This document shows positions 9,029-58,253 of a stretch of DNA of 64,000 nucleotides, piece after piece; within the stretch, counting starts at the first letter, position 1; each line of letters begins with the position of its first letter. The DNA lies in assembly GCA_016186625.1 (NCBI GenBank), contig JACPLG010000008.1:80689-144688 (forward strand). The letters are read 5' to 3'. This DNA is from Candidatus Levyibacteriota bacterium. Its GTDB lineage: Bacteria; Patescibacteriota; Microgenomatia; Levybacterales; UBA12049. The notes under the pieces were generated by a model. It did no database searches, was not told the DNA's origin, and worked only from the letters and a program-made list of their open reading frames with translations. A program made the position numbers and the translations under genes.

Positions 9029-9265
9029 CTAGCCCCGTTCTTTACCTCTCATGGTTCCGTTCCAATCTGTCCACGGCACATCAGTTCTAGGTGCTTCTTT
9101 GGTTTCTCGATCTGCCAAAGCGTCTCTATATGCTTTTCCTGCATCATAAACAGGGAAGACGTGTCTTGCACCTGTATGGTCCCTTACAACCTCTGTTCCA
9201 ACTGGTATCGATGCTGACAGTCCACTTTCATTAATTCCTCCTCCAATTGTTTGTCCTGTTTCCAT
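9029..9265 (-). CDS. Hypothetical small protein P1 (paralog of the ORF at 13544-13840)
   Basis: Internal ATG (METGQTIGGG...) preceded by SD AAGGGTGGTGA; TGARHVFPVYDAG and PWTDW motifs resemble RVGHAFAVDGG and PWTEH in P2. GC-richer than flanks. Confidence 0.35.
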   Translation of the reverse strand: METGQTIGGGINESGLSASIPVGTEVVRDHTGARHVFPVYDAGKAYRDALADRETKEAPRTDVPWTDWNGTMRGKERG

Positions 9266-9347: not shown

Positions 9348-9363
9348 GCTAATTTAAGACCAC

Positions 9364-9433
9364 AAAAAAACCTCCCGTTTGGGAGGCTTATTGCCGTTTC
9401 TTTTTTACAACAGCACCTTACCTCCCTAGATGG
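9364..9433 (-). promoter_or_regulatory. Conserved leader: intrinsic-terminator-like hairpin CCTCCCAAACGGGAGG + U-run preceded by GGGAGG-containing hairpin (possible attenuator)
   Basis: On the minus strand: ...CCCTCCATCTAGGGAGGTAAGG...GCCTCCCAAACGGGAGGTTTTTTT, ~80 nt upstream of the P1 start. Same architecture at 14477-14553. Confidence 0.4.
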
Positions 9434-9526
9434 AGGGTAAAGAAGAAATATACCGCTGTAACCCTATTCACTAAAATTATAATAGCAAACATCAAAATAA
9501 ATCGCAAGTGACTATCTTACACTTTA

Positions 9527-9551
9527 CCTTCCCACTTTCCATGTGGGAAGG
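9527..9551. repeat. REP-1 copy (CCTTCCCACTTTCCATGTGGGAAGG)
   Basis: Perfect hairpin palindrome; same family flanks RAYT at 31129-31776. Confidence 0.7.
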
Positions 9552-9558
9552 TAGATAC

Positions 9559-13277: not shown

Positions 13278-13317
13278 GCTTTAAGTTTAGCAGATTTTTA
13301 TCAGGCAATTCATTCGG

Positions 13318-13362
13318 TTTACACCCCGGGTGTGGATTTAAGTTTACACCCTAGGATTTGTG
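13318..13362. repeat. REP-2 copy (TTTACACCCCGGGTGTGGATTTAAGTTTACACCCTAGGA)
   Basis: Two-part repeat identical in structure to copies at 52316 and 52824. Confidence 0.65.
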
Positions 13363-13363
13363 T

Positions 13364-13434
13364 GGACCCGAGAGGTATCGAACCTCTGGCCTCTTCGATG
13401 TCAACGAAGCGCTCTACCACTGAGCTACGAGTCC
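13364..13434 (-). tRNA. tRNA-Val (anticodon GAC)
   Basis: Minus-strand sequence GGACTCGTAGCTCAGTGGTAGAGCGCTTCGTTGACATCGAAG...GGTTCGATACCTCTCGGGTCCA folds as a cloverleaf; anticodon loop TTGACAT. Confidence 0.8.
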
Positions 13435-13490: not shown

Positions 13491-13543
13491 TAAAATAAAC
13501 GAGCCCGAAGGCCCGTTTATTTTAACAAAATAAGTTCATTGGA

Positions 13544-13840
13544 TCAAATACAGTTAGTTCGAGGTCTTGGCATGACTTTGGCCATATTCGGTGCCTCTTC
13601 CGGAGGCGGAACATGCATTATTCCTCCATCCACTGCAAATGCGTGACCAACACGCATTGTTATACTCTCTCCGTCAGGAGTTCTTCCTGTGATAAATTCT
13701 TGTGGTGTACCACCATCTATTAATAAACCCGCTCTTCTATGTTCTGTCCATGGGTTTGCTTGTGTTACGCCTGTCATTTTATCCGCTGCATCAGCCGCTG
13801 CCCTTGATTCTCCTGTTTCAAATCCTGTCTCCGTTACCAT
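13544..13840 (-). CDS. Hypothetical small protein P2
   Basis: 98 aa; strong SD GGTAGGGGGTGAT 8 nt upstream of ATG; immediately follows P3 stop; GC-richer. Confidence 0.4.
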   Translation of the reverse strand: MVTETGFETGESRAAADAADKMTGVTQANPWTEHRRAGLLIDGGTPQEFITGRTPDGESITMRVGHAFAVDGGIMHVPPPEEAPNMAKVMPRPRTNCI

Positions 13841-13857
13841 AATTAATCACCCCCTAC

Positions 13858-14463
13858 CTAAAATTTCCCCTTTCCTTTCATTCGCAATTTTCCATTAGTG
13901 GATTCTCTTATTCCGTATCCAACTCCAGCTAATTTAGCTAATTCTTGCCCGATCTCATCATTTCTGCGGAAGGCGTTGACTACCAATACAGTTACTTTTT
14001 TTCTGGGATCTCTTACATCCGGTAATTCGTCTCTTGCGAAGAATGATGTCATGTCACTACCCACTCCAGTTCCTCTAATTTGCGCCCGGTACATTGTTGC
14101 TAACTCTGGTGTGTCTGGAATTGTTGTTAACCCCTGCCTATGTCCTTCGTTATTTGCCAGCCTTTCACCGTCTCTTTTTACCGCTTCCATTAATTCTGGA
14201 ATTTGGTTTGGAGGAAGTCTCCTGGGGTTGATAGAGAAAGTTAAGCTTGCACGTAACGCATCGGCTATAAACCAGCTACCGCCGTTTCCAGATATTGGTT
14301 CTACGCTTATTTTATCTACCTTTGTAGGGTCTATGTATGGATGTCTAGGAGAGTCTGCAATCATTCGCGCAATCACAGCCGCATCATGGCGGGTAAACTC
14401 ACCGGCTCTAAAAAGATCAGGTCTTTGACCTGTTTGTCTTGGTTCAAAATCTTGTCTTCCCAT
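13858..14463 (-). CDS. Hypothetical protein P3 (start taken at internal ATG; listed ORF begins with TTG)
   Basis: 201 aa, Arg/Asp/Gly-rich, no recognised motif; preceded by terminator-like hairpin 27 nt upstream. Confidence 0.4.
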   Translation of the reverse strand: MGRQDFEPRQTGQRPDLFRAGEFTRHDAAVIARMIADSPRHPYIDPTKVDKISVEPISGNGGSWFIADALRASLTFSINPRRLPPNQIPELMEAVKRDGERLANNEGHRQGLTTIPDTPELATMYRAQIRGTGVGSDMTSFFARDELPDVRDPRKKVTVLVVNAFRRNDEIGQELAKLAGVGYGIRESTNGKLRMKGKGKF

Positions 14464-14476
14464 ATTCTTAAGCAAC

Positions 14477-14620
14477 AAAAAAACCTCCCGTTGGGGAGGT
14501 TTCTAAGTTAGTCTAACCTTAATTATGCGTCAGACTTACCTCCCCGTAAGGAGTTGATAAGGACGAGAATAAGGTTTTTAATCTTTTCTACCATAGACAA
14601 ATACTAACAACTGGAAATAC
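14477..14620 (-). promoter_or_regulatory. Conserved leader (paralog of 9364-9433) with candidate promoter TTGACT-N17-TAGTAT and anti-antiterminator/antiterminator/terminator hairpins
   Basis: Minus strand: TTGACTtgagtatttccagttgtTAGTAT ... CTCCTTACGGGGAGGTAAG ... AACCTCCCCAACGGGAGGTTTTTTT then ATG 27 nt later. Confidence 0.4.
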
Positions 14621-14760
14621 TCAAGTCAAGAGGGGAAAAGAAGCGGAGCCCTTAAATAGCTAGAATAGTTGAATGGGTAAAATGGCTATATCATTAAGAG
14701 ACAGAATTATTATAATCGATAAACCATGTAGCCATGAAACAATTTAACAATTTACTGGCT

Positions 14761-18645: not shown

Positions 18646-18653
18646 TGATTTTG

Positions 18654-18677
18654 CCTTCCCACATGGAATGTGGGAAT
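18654..18677. repeat. REP-1 copy (CCTTCCCACATGGAATGTGGGAA)
   Basis: Palindromic hairpin of the REP-1 family. Confidence 0.65.
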
Positions 18678-18703
18678 TCGGATTGAGCTGTTTATTCCCC
18701 TTC

Positions 18704-22127: not shown

Positions 22128-22262
22128 TTTCAATGGGGTCGGATTTGGGATTTTGGGAAATCGAAACCACCCCCGAAACCACCCCGGGGGTGGAATTAGG
22201 TTTACACCCTAGGAATTTTCTATAGATTTTTCCTCAATGGGGTCGGATTTGGGGTTTTGGCG
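22128..22262. repeat. REP-2 copy (22176-22218) flanked by ~30-bp direct repeats CAATGGGGTCGGATTTGGGRTTTTGG
   Basis: The second direct repeat encodes the MFS C-terminus (QNPKSDPIEEKSIE); the first is a duplicate downstream of the stop codon. Confidence 0.5.
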
Positions 22263-29057: not shown

Positions 29058-30032
29058 TCACTTACTTTTTCCTAAAATCAAAGCAAGGAGTGCCATTCGG
29101 ATATACATACCGTTTCTAATTTCCGAGCGAAGGTACACCGCATTTGGATTTTTATCAACTTCCGGAAGTATTTCGCCAACGCGGGGCAAAGGGTGCATAA
29201 AAATCGTGTTTTTACCAGCCCTCTCTTTTATAAGTTTGTTATCAAGTACAAAGCGATTTTTTACCTTTTCATACGCGCTTTCGGACTTAAACCTTTCTTT
29301 TTGAACTCTTGTCCAATACCAAAAATCCGCATTTTTTGGAATATCTTTCTCCGATTCAATTTCTACCAACTCTAGCTTCCCACTTTCCATGTGGGAACTC
29401 AGATCTTCCCTGCTTAATCGAAGCTCTTTTGGGGAAAGAAGATAAAGTTTATTACCATTGAACTTTGAGAGACCCCGGATTAATGAATGGATTGTTCTTC
29501 CATTTAACATATCTCCTGCCAAAACTCCTATTAAATTATCTAGTTTTTTTGTTCGCTCATAAATTGTATAAAGGTCAAGCAAAGCTTGTGTGGGGTGTTC
29601 TCCGATTCCGTCACCTGCATTGATAACAGGAACAAACCCAGCTGCCTGGGCTGCCTTAAGCGTCGCTCCTTTCTTTGGATGCCTGAGGACAATTACATCA
29701 CAGTAAGCCTCAAAAACCCTGATCGTATCCTCAAGACTTTCCCCCTTTGAAACCGATGAAAAATGTTCTGGATCAAGAATTTCAACAGTTGAGCCTCCAA
29801 GTTGTTTTACTGCTGCGACAAATGATCCGAAGGTTCTACTTGACGGTTCATAAAAAATAAGGGTAACAATGTTACCCTTAAGAAGATCCGAAGGTCTTGC
29901 GTTTTTGGCAATTAGAAGCATGCCCACGGTTTTCTTAAAAAGAATAGATATGTCCTTAGGGGAAAATTGATCCAGAGAAATAATATCTTTACCTTTGTAT
30001 TTACCATTTATGGGCTCAATCGGACTGACCAT
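29058..30032 (-). CDS. pyrB: Aspartate carbamoyltransferase catalytic subunit
   Basis: FYEPSSRTFGSF (STRTR-type motif), MHPLPRVGEI (HPLPR, ATCase-type rather than OTCase HCLP); adjacent to carAB. Confidence 0.8.
   Translation of the reverse strand: MVSPIEPINGKYKGKDIISLDQFSPKDISILFKKTVGMLLIAKNARPSDLLKGNIVTLIFYEPSSRTFGSFVAAVKQLGGSTVEILDPEHFSSVSKGESLEDTIRVFEAYCDVIVLRHPKKGATLKAAQAAGFVPVINAGDGIGEHPTQALLDLYTIYERTKKLDNLIGVLAGDMLNGRTIHSLIRGLSKFNGNKLYLLSPKELRLSREDLSSHMESGKLELVEIESEKDIPKNADFWYWTRVQKERFKSESAYEKVKNRFVLDNKLIKERAGKNTIFMHPLPRVGEILPEVDKNPNAVYLRSEIRNGMYIRMALLALILGKSK
29376..29397. repeat. REP-1 copy lying in-frame inside pyrB (encodes ...SSHMESGK...)
   Basis: CTTCCCACTTTCCATGTGGGAA within the pyrB ORF. 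Confidence 0.6.
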
Positions 30033-30139: not shown

Positions 30140-31093
30140 GTGAAGAAACACTTCGTTTTCTTTGTTTGCATACTGATAATAGCAGGGAGCGGTTTTGGTC
30201 TTTTTGTGTATCACCAAAAATCACTAGCCAGAAATATTTACTCCCCTCTTCCGGACTCATTGAACAAAAAGGAAAATCCAGAGGTTATGAGTCTTGATTT
30301 TTGGCTGCCGAGTCTGTTTGGTTTTTTTGACAGCGATGATGTCCCCGCGCTTAGTGCAAAATCGGTGTTGGTTTATGATCTTTCGGAAGAAAAGACAATT
30401 TATGAGAAAAATTCCAAAGATCGGCTTCCTATGGCATCTCTCACTAAAATTATGACTGCAATGGTGGCAATTGACCACAAAAGAGAGGATGATCGCTATA
30501 CTATATCTTCAGAGGATCTGGTTGGAGAAAATACAATCGGACTCTCGGCTGGAGAATCAATGAGTTTGGAAGAGCTTCTTTATGGTATTTTTATGTATTC
30601 TGCAAATGAAGCCGCTGAGGCACTTGCATCTAATACTTTAGGCCGCGAAAGTTTTATCAAGGCCATGAATGACAAGGCAAAAGCGCTCGGCCTTGAAAAC
30701 ACAAATTTCACCAACCCAACGGGTTTTGAAGGCGATGGAGACCAATATACTACAGCTTATGACTTACTCGTACTCTCGCGATATGCTGTCACAAACTATC
30801 CTCAAATCATAAAAGCATCAAGCACTGAGAAAATTTTTATTCCGCAAACAGAAGATCACTATGCATATGATATGTATAACCAGACAAATTTAATAACTTC
30901 CTATCCCGGTGTAAAAGGTTTAAAAGATGGATATACTCCCGAAGCAGGGCTTTGTCTGGTTACATATCTTGATTACGGCGGACATAAAATTATAGGAATT
31001 ATTCTGGGAAGTGAAAACAGAAGGCAGGAAATGAAGTCGTTGCTTGATTATTCTCTCCGCCAACAAGGCATCGAACCCCCACCCCACAGCTAA
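30140..31093 (+). CDS. D-alanyl-D-alanine carboxypeptidase (peptidase S11, PBP5-like)
   Basis: SLTK (SxxK), SANE (SxN), KDGYT (KTG-like); N-terminal TM anchor. Confidence 0.8.
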   Translation: MKKHFVFFVCILIIAGSGFGLFVYHQKSLARNIYSPLPDSLNKKENPEVMSLDFWLPSLFGFFDSDDVPALSAKSVLVYDLSEEKTIYEKNSKDRLPMASLTKIMTAMVAIDHKREDDRYTISSEDLVGENTIGLSAGESMSLEELLYGIFMYSANEAAEALASNTLGRESFIKAMNDKAKALGLENTNFTNPTGFEGDGDQYTTAYDLLVLSRYAVTNYPQIIKASSTEKIFIPQTEDHYAYDMYNQTNLITSYPGVKGLKDGYTPEAGLCLVTYLDYGGHKIIGIILGSENRRQEMKSLLDYSLRQQGIEPPPHS

Positions 31094-31097
31094 TGTA

Positions 31098-31120
31098 CCT
31101 TCCCACATGGAAAGTGGGAA
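31098..31120. repeat. REP-1 copy flanking RAYT-1
   Basis: CCTTCCCACATGGAAAGTGGGAA. Confidence 0.7.
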
Positions 31121-31128
31121 CACAGAAT

Positions 31129-31776
31129 TCAGTCATCGATGTCGATTAGAGAATCAAAAAGCGCCGGGTCAATATCATTAGTTTCCTCGACAAAACTTTG
31201 ATAGTCTCTTTCTGGATTCGATCGCGCAAAATAAGAAAGAATAAAACCTGTATCACAAAAAACATGTTTTTCCCCATAAATATAGTTACAATAAGACGAA
31301 TATGGGTAAACTCTACATTCACACATGGAAAGTGGGAAAGGGTTTCGGTGAATATATTTTGACAGTTGCAGAAGATGCCCATCGCTTTCAATATACTTTG
31401 CTTTAAAACTTCCTTGAAACAGTGGTCCTACTCTATCGTACTTAGTATTGAAATACCTTGTATAACTGTCTGATAATTTTCTTAGAAAGTGTGTAATGCC
31501 ATTATCGGTTAATTGTTTGACTAGGAGATGAAAATGGTTAGGCATCAAGCAAAAACAAAAAATACTTACTAGTTCTGTTTGGCTGTCTACTTTCTTAAGT
31601 TTAACGATTCCCCTTCTGTAGTCAGATAGTTTCATGGGCTGAGGAGATTTTCGATAAAAGTCCAGAGTTTCTAAAAATCTAAGATAGTCCCACCTATCCA
31701 AAAAGATATCTCTTTTTTCCACACCTCTATTATAAATGTGGAAGAATCCGTCGGTGATAAAAGGAGGATTCTTCAT
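31129..31776 (-). CDS. REP-associated tyrosine transposase (RAYT; IS200/IS605 TnpA-like HUH Y1 transposase), family 1
   Basis: HIYNRGV, MPNHFHLLV (HUH), YIHRNP (catalytic Tyr); flanked by REP-1 copies on both sides. Confidence 0.8.
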   Translation of the reverse strand: MKNPPFITDGFFHIYNRGVEKRDIFLDRWDYLRFLETLDFYRKSPQPMKLSDYRRGIVKLKKVDSQTELVSIFCFCLMPNHFHLLVKQLTDNGITHFLRKLSDSYTRYFNTKYDRVGPLFQGSFKAKYIESDGHLLQLSKYIHRNPFPLSMCECRVYPYSSYCNYIYGEKHVFCDTGFILSYFARSNPERDYQSFVEETNDIDPALFDSLIDIDD

Positions 31777-31806
31777 AAGCGTAATATATTAATTTAACCA
31801 TAAGTA

Positions 31807-31831
31807 CCTTCCCACATGTCAAGTGGGAAGG
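31807..31831. repeat. REP-1 copy flanking RAYT-1
   Basis: CCTTCCCACATGTCAAGTGGGAAGG. Confidence 0.7.
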
Positions 31832-31896
31832 TAAACTTTCCCTCTGGAGCTTGGGTTTGATATGCGCTTCTTATCCTTGTATAATATTAGCTACGC

Positions 31897-37847: not shown

Positions 37848-37903
37848 TTTACACCTTTACACCCCGGGTGTGGATTTACCTTGACACCCCAGGGATTTAG
37901 ATT
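37848..37903. repeat. REP-2 copy flanking RAYT-2
   Basis: CTTTACACCTTTACACCCCGGGTGTGGATTTACCTTGACACCCCAGGGA. Confidence 0.65.
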
Positions 37904-37917
37904 TAAAGTTAGTTTAT

Positions 37918-52177: not shown

Positions 52178-52315
52178 AACTTTATTATAGACTTATTTAA
52201 CAAGAAAAGTTGGAGGAAAAAGTATGTCAGGGGTAATTATAGCAGAAGATACCATATTTTAAGAACAAGAAAATCCTTAAGATTACATCCAAGCGTAAAT
52301 TCAAGCTTACACAGT

Positions 52316-52358
52316 TTACACCCCGGGGGTGGATTTAGCTTTACACCCCAGGATTTAA
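52316..52358. repeat. REP-2 copy upstream of C39-like gene
   Basis: TTTACACCCCGGGGGTGGATTTAGCTTTACACCCCAGGA. Confidence 0.65.
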
Positions 52359-52404
52359 TTTAAGTGCGCAAGGCACTTGTTAATAAAATTATAAATTCTA
52401 CAAT

Positions 52405-52806: not shown

Positions 52807-52823
52807 AATTTCCGCTCCTAGGT

Positions 52824-52866
52824 TTACACCCCGGGTGTGGATTTAGCTTTACACCCCAGGAGTTTG
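52824..52866. repeat. REP-2 copy downstream of C39-like gene
   Basis: TTTACACCCCGGGTGTGGATTTAGCTTTACACCCCAGGA. Confidence 0.65.
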
Positions 52867-52893
52867 TTAGAGTTGTTGAGAGTTGTTGGATCA

Positions 52894-58200: not shown

Positions 58201-58216
58201 TTTTGGCTTAAAGTAG

Positions 58217-58239
58217 CTTCCCACATGGAAAGTGGGAAG
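58217..58239. repeat. REP-1 copy
   Basis: CTTCCCACATGGAAAGTGGGAAG perfect palindrome. Confidence 0.7.
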
Positions 58240-58253
58240 CAAGTTCTTATTAT

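Follow-up and report, generated by a model that had tools for sequence, protein, structure and literature searches.

Our analysis of a 64-kb stretch of DNA from a Candidatus Levyibacteriota bacterium (contig JACPLG010000008.1; "the window" in what follows) suggests that an element on its minus strand, the strand of all elements treated here, is quite probably a ribosome-mediated, or leader-peptide, transcription attenuator of a two-gene operon encoding the 201-residue protein P3 and a 98-residue protein. The element is one of two in the window that share a scaffold, and we refer to it as copy 2 and to its sister as copy 1. Computation yields for copy 2 a promoter, a short open reading frame (ORF), three alternative helices, conservation together with partial covariation among relatives, and, in sister elements, a match between the encoded peptide and the gene behind it. 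From its sequence we take the region to be a real, conserved regulatory element, one that would act like the pheL/pheM/ilvL class of leader-peptide attenuators and in which, as in the classical systems of this class, a ribosome at work on the leader most likely serves as the sensor.

A consensus scan places the promoter of copy 2 at 14601-14629, with a -35 hexamer TTGACT (14629-14624), a 17-nt spacer and an extended -10 element TGnTAGTAT (14609-14601, within which TAGTAT occupies 14606-14601). An earlier note on this DNA had described the same TTGACT-N17-TAGTAT promoter at ~14620-14590, about 10 nt downstream of where we find it, and had rightly observed that P3 starts without a Shine-Dalgarno sequence, none being found before its ATG at 14463. 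Its other dimensions need revision: counted from its predicted start and with the U run included, the RNA measures ~118 nt rather than ~140 nt, and the ATG follows not after 27 nt but 13 nt past the U run and 20 nt past GGGAGG. The note had also named lack of conservation in relatives as grounds for giving up the structure, and here the answer is clear, since the complete unit of promoter, ORF and three mutually exclusive hairpins is kept at the syntenic site in 9 other Levybacteria-type contigs.

Together with the window these contigs (L010, L021, L029, L113, L114, L118, L119, L121 and L122) make up a non-redundant set of ten sequences, mutually 81% identical, which we call type B. Relatives were collected with a scaffold pattern, GGAGGTAA…CCTCC…GGAGGTTTT, which gave 111 loci in species-representative genomes, and with a copy-2-specific pattern, which gave additional metagenome contigs; two metagenome matches (L115 and L116) lay within coding regions and were discarded as chance. 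Some contigs are labelled "uncultured Gammaproteobacteria", and we did not rely on these labels, since their leaders and proteins hardly differ from those of contigs labelled Levyibacteriota (L027 versus L042, for example). Every type-B member carries a promoter of the form TTGACA-17/18-TAnnAT at the same position. The leader fold of copy 2 has a z-score of -3.2 against shuffles, and a covariance model built from the relatives scores 116 bits on copy 2, 43 bits on copy 1 and at most 21 bits on everything else in the 64 kb. Four matches to CCTCC-N3-8-GGAGGT are present in the window, where 0.05 are expected, and all four lie within copies 1 and 2. The order of the locus is DUF5660 gene, leader, one or two variable small genes, tRNA-Val(GAC), HD-domain protein, 74-aa membrane protein and thrS-infC-rpmI-rplT. 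The DUF5660 stop codon lies ~130 nt from the -35 box in the window (14630-14760), compared with ~10-15 nt in relatives.

Could the hairpin merely be the terminator of the upstream DUF5660 gene, with spurious promoter hexamers next to it? Promoter-like sites are frequent in AT-rich DNA such as this (23 found, 16 expected), but the promoter, the ORF and both hairpins stay together in ten loci while the downstream flanking genes vary, and in relatives the DUF5660 stop codon comes close to the -35 box. Conservation already contradicts such a chance juxtaposition, which we regard as hardly credible.

The earlier note treated the leader as untranslated. We find instead that it consists almost wholly of a conserved ORF of 22-23 codons, whose start (ATG or GTG) lies 6-10 nt past the -10 box in ten of ten type-B sequences; the frame is open, with start, frame and stop position kept, in nine of the ten. 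In copy 2 the ORF occupies 14523-14594, with 23 codons and a TAA stop (14525-14523), and encodes the peptide MVEKIKNLILVLINSLRGGKSDA; its ATG lies 6 nt past the -10 box and has no Shine-Dalgarno sequence, and the ORF has its start and its stop between the promoter and the terminator. The core of the type-B peptide is N-L-I-[ILV]-[VA]-[IL]-[IL]-N-S-[LF]-x-G-G-K, where core substitutions are confined to I/L/V(A). Codon 3 encodes Lys or Arg throughout, by way of AAA, AAG, AGA and CGC. As no pairing is predicted in this part of the leader, its constancy speaks for selection acting on the peptide or, at the least, on its frame. If a leaderless ORF is one in which transcription starts within ~0-3 nt of the start codon and no Shine-Dalgarno sequence precedes it, then the 6-nt distance from the -10 box and the predicted start site make the ORF of copy 2 probably leaderless. 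Of the ~75 scaffold loci in which a start codon was found, nearly all have it 6-10 nt past the best -10 hexamer, which makes leaderless sensor ORFs a likely trait of the whole scaffold family.

The RNAalifold consensus and the folds of individual sequences show how the leader can pair. Region 1 (AACCUUAUUCUCGUC...CUUAUCAACUCCU, 14549-14576), which runs over the codons for N-L-I-L-V-L-I-N-S, forms the 5′ half of the 1:2 hairpin, and region 2 (GGGGAGGUAAGUCUGACGCAUAAUUAAGGUU, 14515-14545), which contains the leader UAA, is the partner either of region 1 or of region 3. In the consensus the long 5′ hairpin has an outer helix AACCUU/AAGGUU, a middle helix CUUA/UAAG and an inner helix CUCCU/GGGAG (in the window CUCCU-UACG-GGGAG, 14553-14540), and the terminator comes next. 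The antiterminator 2:3 (GGGGAGGU/ACCUCCCC plus AGUCUGAC/GUUAGACU, 14493-14545) has a predicted energy of -22.1 kcal/mol; its AGUCUGAC/GUUAGACU part lies, in the window sequence, as a mid hairpin between the CUCCU/GGGAG hairpin and the terminator. The intrinsic terminator 3:4 (AAACCUCCC-CAAC-GGGAGGUUU with its U run, 14477-14502; -13.5 kcal/mol) has a GC-rich stem of 9 bp followed by U7 and lies directly upstream of P3; its stem is invariant in all ten type-B sequences. Each of the ten folds as 1:2 (-18 to -23 kcal/mol), as 2:3 (-20 to -27 kcal/mol) and as 3:4 (-12 to -15 kcal/mol), and in each the computed antiterminator takes up the 5′ arm of the terminator and excludes the hairpin that overlaps the ORF. 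With the leader stop codon in the antiterminator loop and the Ile/Leu/Val/Asn codons in region 1, the modelled placement of stop and sense codons is that of a classical attenuator. A GGGAGG Shine-Dalgarno sequence within the terminator, serving an in-frame TTG at 14478, was considered and ruled out, since in relatives that TTG either stands in another frame or has a stop behind it.

Support for the antiterminator also comes from the way its pairs vary. Its core, GGGAGGU with ACCUCCC, can pair in all ten type-B sequences, and its inner helix changes in a compensatory manner, being GUCU/GGAC, GUUC/GAAC, GUUCGG/CCGAAC or UCUG/CAGA in relatives and AGUCUGAC/GUUAGACU in the window. Pairs were counted on an alignment fitted to the antiterminator by a covariance model, with three type-A hits included. 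In this alignment 88.5% of antiterminator cells are paired, against 82.7 ± 1.4% in shuffled alignments, and the covariation score is 0.187 against 0.113, neither value being reached in any of 500 shuffles; 7 of 18 pairs are altered on both sides, against 4.0 in shuffles, a count reached by 11 of the 500. When the 3′ partners are slid by 1-3 columns, pairing falls to ~29-52% (about 45%). The folds and the covariation thus bear out the earlier proposal of a three-element switch, in which a GGGGAGG segment has two alternative partners, the upstream CUCC and the CCUCCCC of the terminator, and the predicted architecture, with a terminator 13 nt before the ATG, likewise agrees with the suggestion that P3 would depend on readthrough.

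How might such a switch work? The transcription start site, the translation of the ORF, the amino acid sensed and the switching itself are what we infer from these parts. Transcription would start at or a few nt from the ATG at 14594, so that the RNA would be a leaderless mRNA for the 23-residue peptide. Smooth translation as far as the UAA would leave the ribosome covering region 2, and the terminator 3:4 would form; if no ribosome were loaded, region 1 would pair with region 2 and the terminator would again form. In both cases RNA polymerase would halt in the U run, 13 nt before P3. When the cognate charged tRNAs are scarce, on the other hand, the ribosome would stall in the N-L-I-L-V-L-I-N stretch and occupy region 1, in which case GGGGAGGU would pair with ACCUCCCC to give the 2:3 antiterminator and the polymerase would enter P3. 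Each of the ten type-B peptides has at least two Ile codons, two or three for Asn and between one and four for Leu; most also have one or two for Val. In the codon usage of the genome AAC and GUC are minor and CUU and AUU major. This composition and this usage favour branched-chain sensing: copy 2 most likely responds to the charging of Ile/Leu/Val tRNAs, with Asn as a possible contributor.

Several points weigh against a leader-peptide attenuator. The covariation was counted on an alignment fitted to the very structure under test, and the 1:2 and 3:4 helices, while kept, barely covary because the type-B sequences are 81% identical. Much of the apparent conservation of the peptide (AACCUUAUU, GGGAGGUAAG) is accounted for equally by RNA pairing. 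The start codon is GTG in four of the ten type-B leader ORFs, and also in copy 1, and GTG is poorly used for leaderless initiation in some bacteria. The core mixes Ile, Leu, Val and Asn, with no run of a single residue that would point to one sensed amino acid; the regulated genes show no known tie to amino-acid metabolism; and both the start site of the promoter and the translation of the ORF rest on prediction.

That the scaffold senses tRNA charging through translation is argued most strongly by the correlation between peptide and gene in the sister elements. The scaffold loci fall into two groups, namely genuine pheL-pheA leaders of Alteromonadales and Chromatiales, and many elements of candidate-phyla type, in which the composition of the peptide tracks the next gene. 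Phe-rich peptides precede genes for DAHP synthase (L027 and five similar loci), EPSP synthase (L074), prephenate dehydratase (L023), PheS (L012, L099 and L068) and PheA; peptides containing CCC precede a cysteine-synthase-like enzyme dependent on pyridoxal phosphate (L057 and L070); a peptide containing TTT precedes ThrRS (L109); and a Ser-rich peptide precedes a SerA-like dehydrogenase (L063). Among scaffold loci the Cys-rich (L057, L070), Thr-rich (L109) and Ser-rich (L063/L084) peptides are joined by Leu-rich (L004/L083) and Ile-rich ones (L037/L086), the latter two types preceding proteins of unknown function.

The earlier note looked to a ligand or a protein for the signal. In that case the switch would be independent of translation, a metabolite (as in a riboswitch) or an RNA-binding protein stabilising 1:2 or 2:3, and the short ORF would be incidental. 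The three-element switch would indeed be present whatever the translation, and most of the conserved ORF nucleotides also lie within helices. But it is then hard to see why the start should lie 6-10 nt past the -10 box in all elements, why the stop should be kept, why substitutions should be conservative even in the unstructured N-terminal codons, and why the composition of the sister peptides should change with the downstream gene; nor is there a conserved unpaired pocket of the aptamer type or an Rfam riboswitch match, the only hit being to a leader-peptide family, Phe_leader. We therefore consider a translation-independent attenuator unlikely, and the ribosome, given the conserved ORF and the amino-acid runs in sister peptides that match their downstream genes, the more likely sensor.

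The hit itself deserves comment. The match of copy 2 to Rfam RF01859 (Phe_leader) spans the whole model and shows the same layout of helices; it scores 46.6 bits (E ~4e-7), and copy 1 scores 37 bits, where the gathering cut-off is 55 bits. At the cut-off the model finds none of 18 related loci, a true Rheinheimera pheL among them. The copy-2 peptide contains no Phe, and what lies downstream is P3 rather than pheA, so that copy 2 falls outside the family both by score and by peptide. At the gathering cut-offs, Rfam reports only tRNAs in the whole window; up to E 10, apart from leader and small-RNA (sRNA) noise hits, it gives no riboswitch, T-box or other curated cis-regulatory match.

A second way of reading the ORF is as a nascent-peptide arrest leader of the erm/cat/tnaC type, in which …NSLxGGK… would stall the ribosome when the exit tunnel holds an antibiotic or small molecule, and amino-acid supply would not be the signal. 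Such a leader would fit a peptide that is conserved over 17 residues, past the hydrophobic run, and targets that are not amino-acid genes. However, the codons of the conserved C-terminal residues lie in the GGGAGGUAAG helix arm, and RNA constraint accounts for their conservation; the scaffold of L029 is kept even though its peptide ends sooner (MSKKFNLINRIINSR); and family-wide the peptide composition tracks amino-acid-specific genes. To peptide arrest we assign a small probability.

The genes that copy 2 would control are themselves unusual. P3 (13858-14463) belongs to a rare lineage-specific family. A word-indexed homology search for P3 returned as its sole match the protein itself (identical to a hypothetical protein from a metagenome-assembled Candidatus Levybacteria genome), and an exhaustive HMMER search of 1.84 billion representative proteins returned six representatives, that is five relatives, none of them informative. 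The P3 locus is present in SRR12113424. The second gene (13544-13840; 98 aa) has no functional assignment, and among P3, the 98-aa ORF and the counterparts of both there is no match to Pfam or PADLOC. For P3, Foldseek gave nothing at E ≤ 0.001 against the PDB, and a profile search nothing among PDB sequences; there is a weak hint of a RelE/ParE-like, toxin-type fold, which we treat as an unconfirmed lead. Homologues of P3 lie behind the same leader in L114 and L118, a 94-aa homologue of the 98-aa ORF does so in L121, with related ORFs in L113, L118 and L119, and other genomes have unrelated ORFs of 54-111 aa in this place. By their sequences, P3 and the 98-aa gene appear to be fast-evolving orphans. 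The operon closes, as read from the sequence, with a terminator AAAUAAACGGGCC-UUCG-GGCUCGUUUAUUUUA at 13491-13522.

It could be asked whether control of P3 is only secondary, the element being chiefly an sRNA gene or a dual-function RNA, whose ~118-nt transcript acts in trans (for example through CCUCC/GGAGG on ribosome-binding sites) or whose 23-residue peptide is functional. The unit is self-contained, from promoter to terminator, and has a stable fold; moreover, two papers (PMC6614838, PMC7298713) document attenuator-derived sRNAs and functional leader peptides in Sinorhizobium. Set against this, the terminator is always 11-33 nt from the next ORF, with no promoter in that gap in the window, and the antiterminator, for which a stand-alone sRNA has no need, is conserved and covaries. 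As the chief role of copy 2 an sRNA seems to us improbable, though it is compatible with a leader-peptide attenuator and does not exclude one.

Leader control of the tRNA-Val(GAC) gene that always lies behind the operon was also considered, and ruled out: the orientation of the tRNA varies in relatives, and in the window a terminator precedes it. A fragment resembling the 5′ half of tRNA-Val(GAC) is found at ~13486-13451, just upstream of the intact tRNA-Val (13362-13434). With the tRNA-Val behind the type-B operon in either orientation, and with the genes between leader and tRNA differing among relatives, the tRNA-Val region looks, from its sequence, like a hot spot of recombination or integration.

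Turning to known systems, the enterobacterial leaders ilvL, ivbL and leuL have mixed Ile/Leu/Val regulatory codons upstream of a terminator/antiterminator switch. By its predicted peptide and switch, copy 2 resembles them in both respects; it differs in that no sequence similarity is seen, its targets are not ilv/leu genes, and two invariant AAC (Asn) codons flank the run. To our knowledge, candidate-phyla bacteria are generally thought to have no ilv/leu-type biosynthetic pathways. There is also a likeness to gammaproteobacterial pheL-pheA (RF01859), in which, as in copy 2, an outer 1:2 stem encloses a CCNCC/GGGAGG hairpin and is followed by a CCUCCC/GGGAGG terminator and U run. The pheL-pheA loci of Rheinheimera, Arsukibacterium and Alteromonas match the same DNA pattern as copy 2, from which they differ in the Phe content of the peptide and in having pheA rather than orphan genes downstream. 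In true gammaproteobacterial pheL-pheA leaders (L026, L035, L049, L053, L073, L079 and others of Rheinheimera, Arsukibacterium and Alteromonas) the pheL ATG lies 6-9 nt past a TTGACT-18-TAAGGT-type promoter, and these Alteromonadales-type ORFs thus appear, by sequence, to be leaderless too. According to PMC3082878, E. coli pheL by contrast has a Shine-Dalgarno sequence; the ORF of copy 2 has its start 6 nt past the -10 box. Comparable too are the leaderless polycysteine short ORFs of mycobacteria, where stalling on amino-acid codons remodels the downstream RNA and unmasks a ribosome-binding site, giving translational control, and where several loci that answer to one signal have been termed a "ribulon" (Canestrari et al., bioRxiv 10.1101/834739). 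Both are sensory short ORFs, leaderless in mycobacteria and predicted to be so in copy 2, but copy 2 would act on transcription, by way of an intrinsic terminator.

Copy 2 is thus unusual in three respects, namely its host from the candidate phyla radiation, its apparently leaderless ORF and its fast-evolving orphan targets. Attenuation by leader peptides belongs to textbook biology, but its descriptions come mainly from Proteobacteria and Actinobacteria, and our search of the accessible literature found no paper tying it to candidate-phyla bacteria. We find the same scaffold in many Microgenomates-type genomes, with specificities that match pheS, aro genes, a cysteine-synthase-like gene, thrS and a serA-like gene. 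The scaffold peptides offer a handle, from sequence alone, on the tRNA pools that uncultivated, host-dependent cells monitor. Since copy 2 and most Phe-type copies would control small orphan proteins, these orphans are flagged as starvation-induced and can be given priority in further work. That the sensor ORF seems to start without a leader, as in Alteromonadales pheL, is a detail of the coupling between ribosome loading and transcription that lends itself to testing.

More tentatively, one may ask whether Microgenomates-type bacteria reuse a single modular, leaderless scaffold of the pheL/pheM type with swappable sensor peptides (Phe, Cys, Thr, Ser, Ile/Leu/Val) as a starvation "ribulon", directed mostly not at biosynthetic enzymes but at fast-evolving, lineage-specific small proteins, P3 among them. 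We offer this as a possibility that we ourselves think rather doubtful. If it is true, the orphans would be a response to shortage of host-supplied amino acids, for example through growth arrest or host manipulation, and the weak, unconfirmed hint of a RelE/ParE-like fold in P3 would suit a role in translation arrest.

Copy 1 (9362-9507) is a sister attenuator on the same scaffold, with a promoter TTGCGA-17-TATTAT, a leader ORF at 9471-9418 and a terminator at 9389-9362. Its ORF starts with GTG 7 nt past the -10 box, encodes the peptide MNRVTAVYFFFTLHLGR, which contains FFF, and has its stop codon within GGGAGGUAA. The earlier note had taken copies 1 and 2 for two copies of one leader; they do share the scaffold, but they are not duplicates, the peptide of copy 1 being Phe-rich (pheM/pheL type) and that of copy 2 rich in Ile/Leu/Val/Asn. 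Between the genes downstream of the two, compared for paralogy, there is no similarity, and a comparison of the two loci for compensatory changes, as the note had advised, is uninformative because the shared arms are nearly identical. Copy 1 sits after thrS-infC-rpmI-rplT, where Woesebacteria-type relatives have a Phe leader followed by pheS, as do L012, L099 and L068. This is also the position of pheM-pheST in E. coli, and the copy-1 peptide resembles E. coli PheM. Unlike the E. coli locus, copy 1 has neither pheS nor pheA behind it but a 78-aa "DHTGARH" orphan (9029-9265), which recurs behind Phe leaders in L015, L006 and L069.

The remaining gene content of the window, with scattered tRNA genes, a short thrS, infC, rplT, trigger factor and the DUF5660 gene, is consistent with a candidate-phyla (Microgenomates) genome. 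Three kinds of repeat were seen. Between the copy-1 terminator and its downstream ORF lies a perfect 14-bp inverted repeat (AGCTTTGCAAGGCC/AGGCCTTGCAAAGCT, ~9346-9316) with no U run, a candidate operator or processing site. Intergenic palindromes with the sequence CTTCCCACATGGAAAGTGGGAAG (families D2/D3) occur at 9521-9556, 18648-18683, 29369-29404, 31092-31127, 31314-31338, 31801-31836 and 58210-58245, one copy lying between a 145-aa ORF and the copy-1 promoter; these could be bidirectional terminators, REP-like elements or the binding site of a regulator. Finally, a 52-nt repeat (family D1) with two TTTACACCCC(G/A)GG half-sites occurs at 13317-13368, 22175-22226, 37855-37906, 52314-52365 and 52822-52873, one copy lying immediately after tRNA-Val(GAC).
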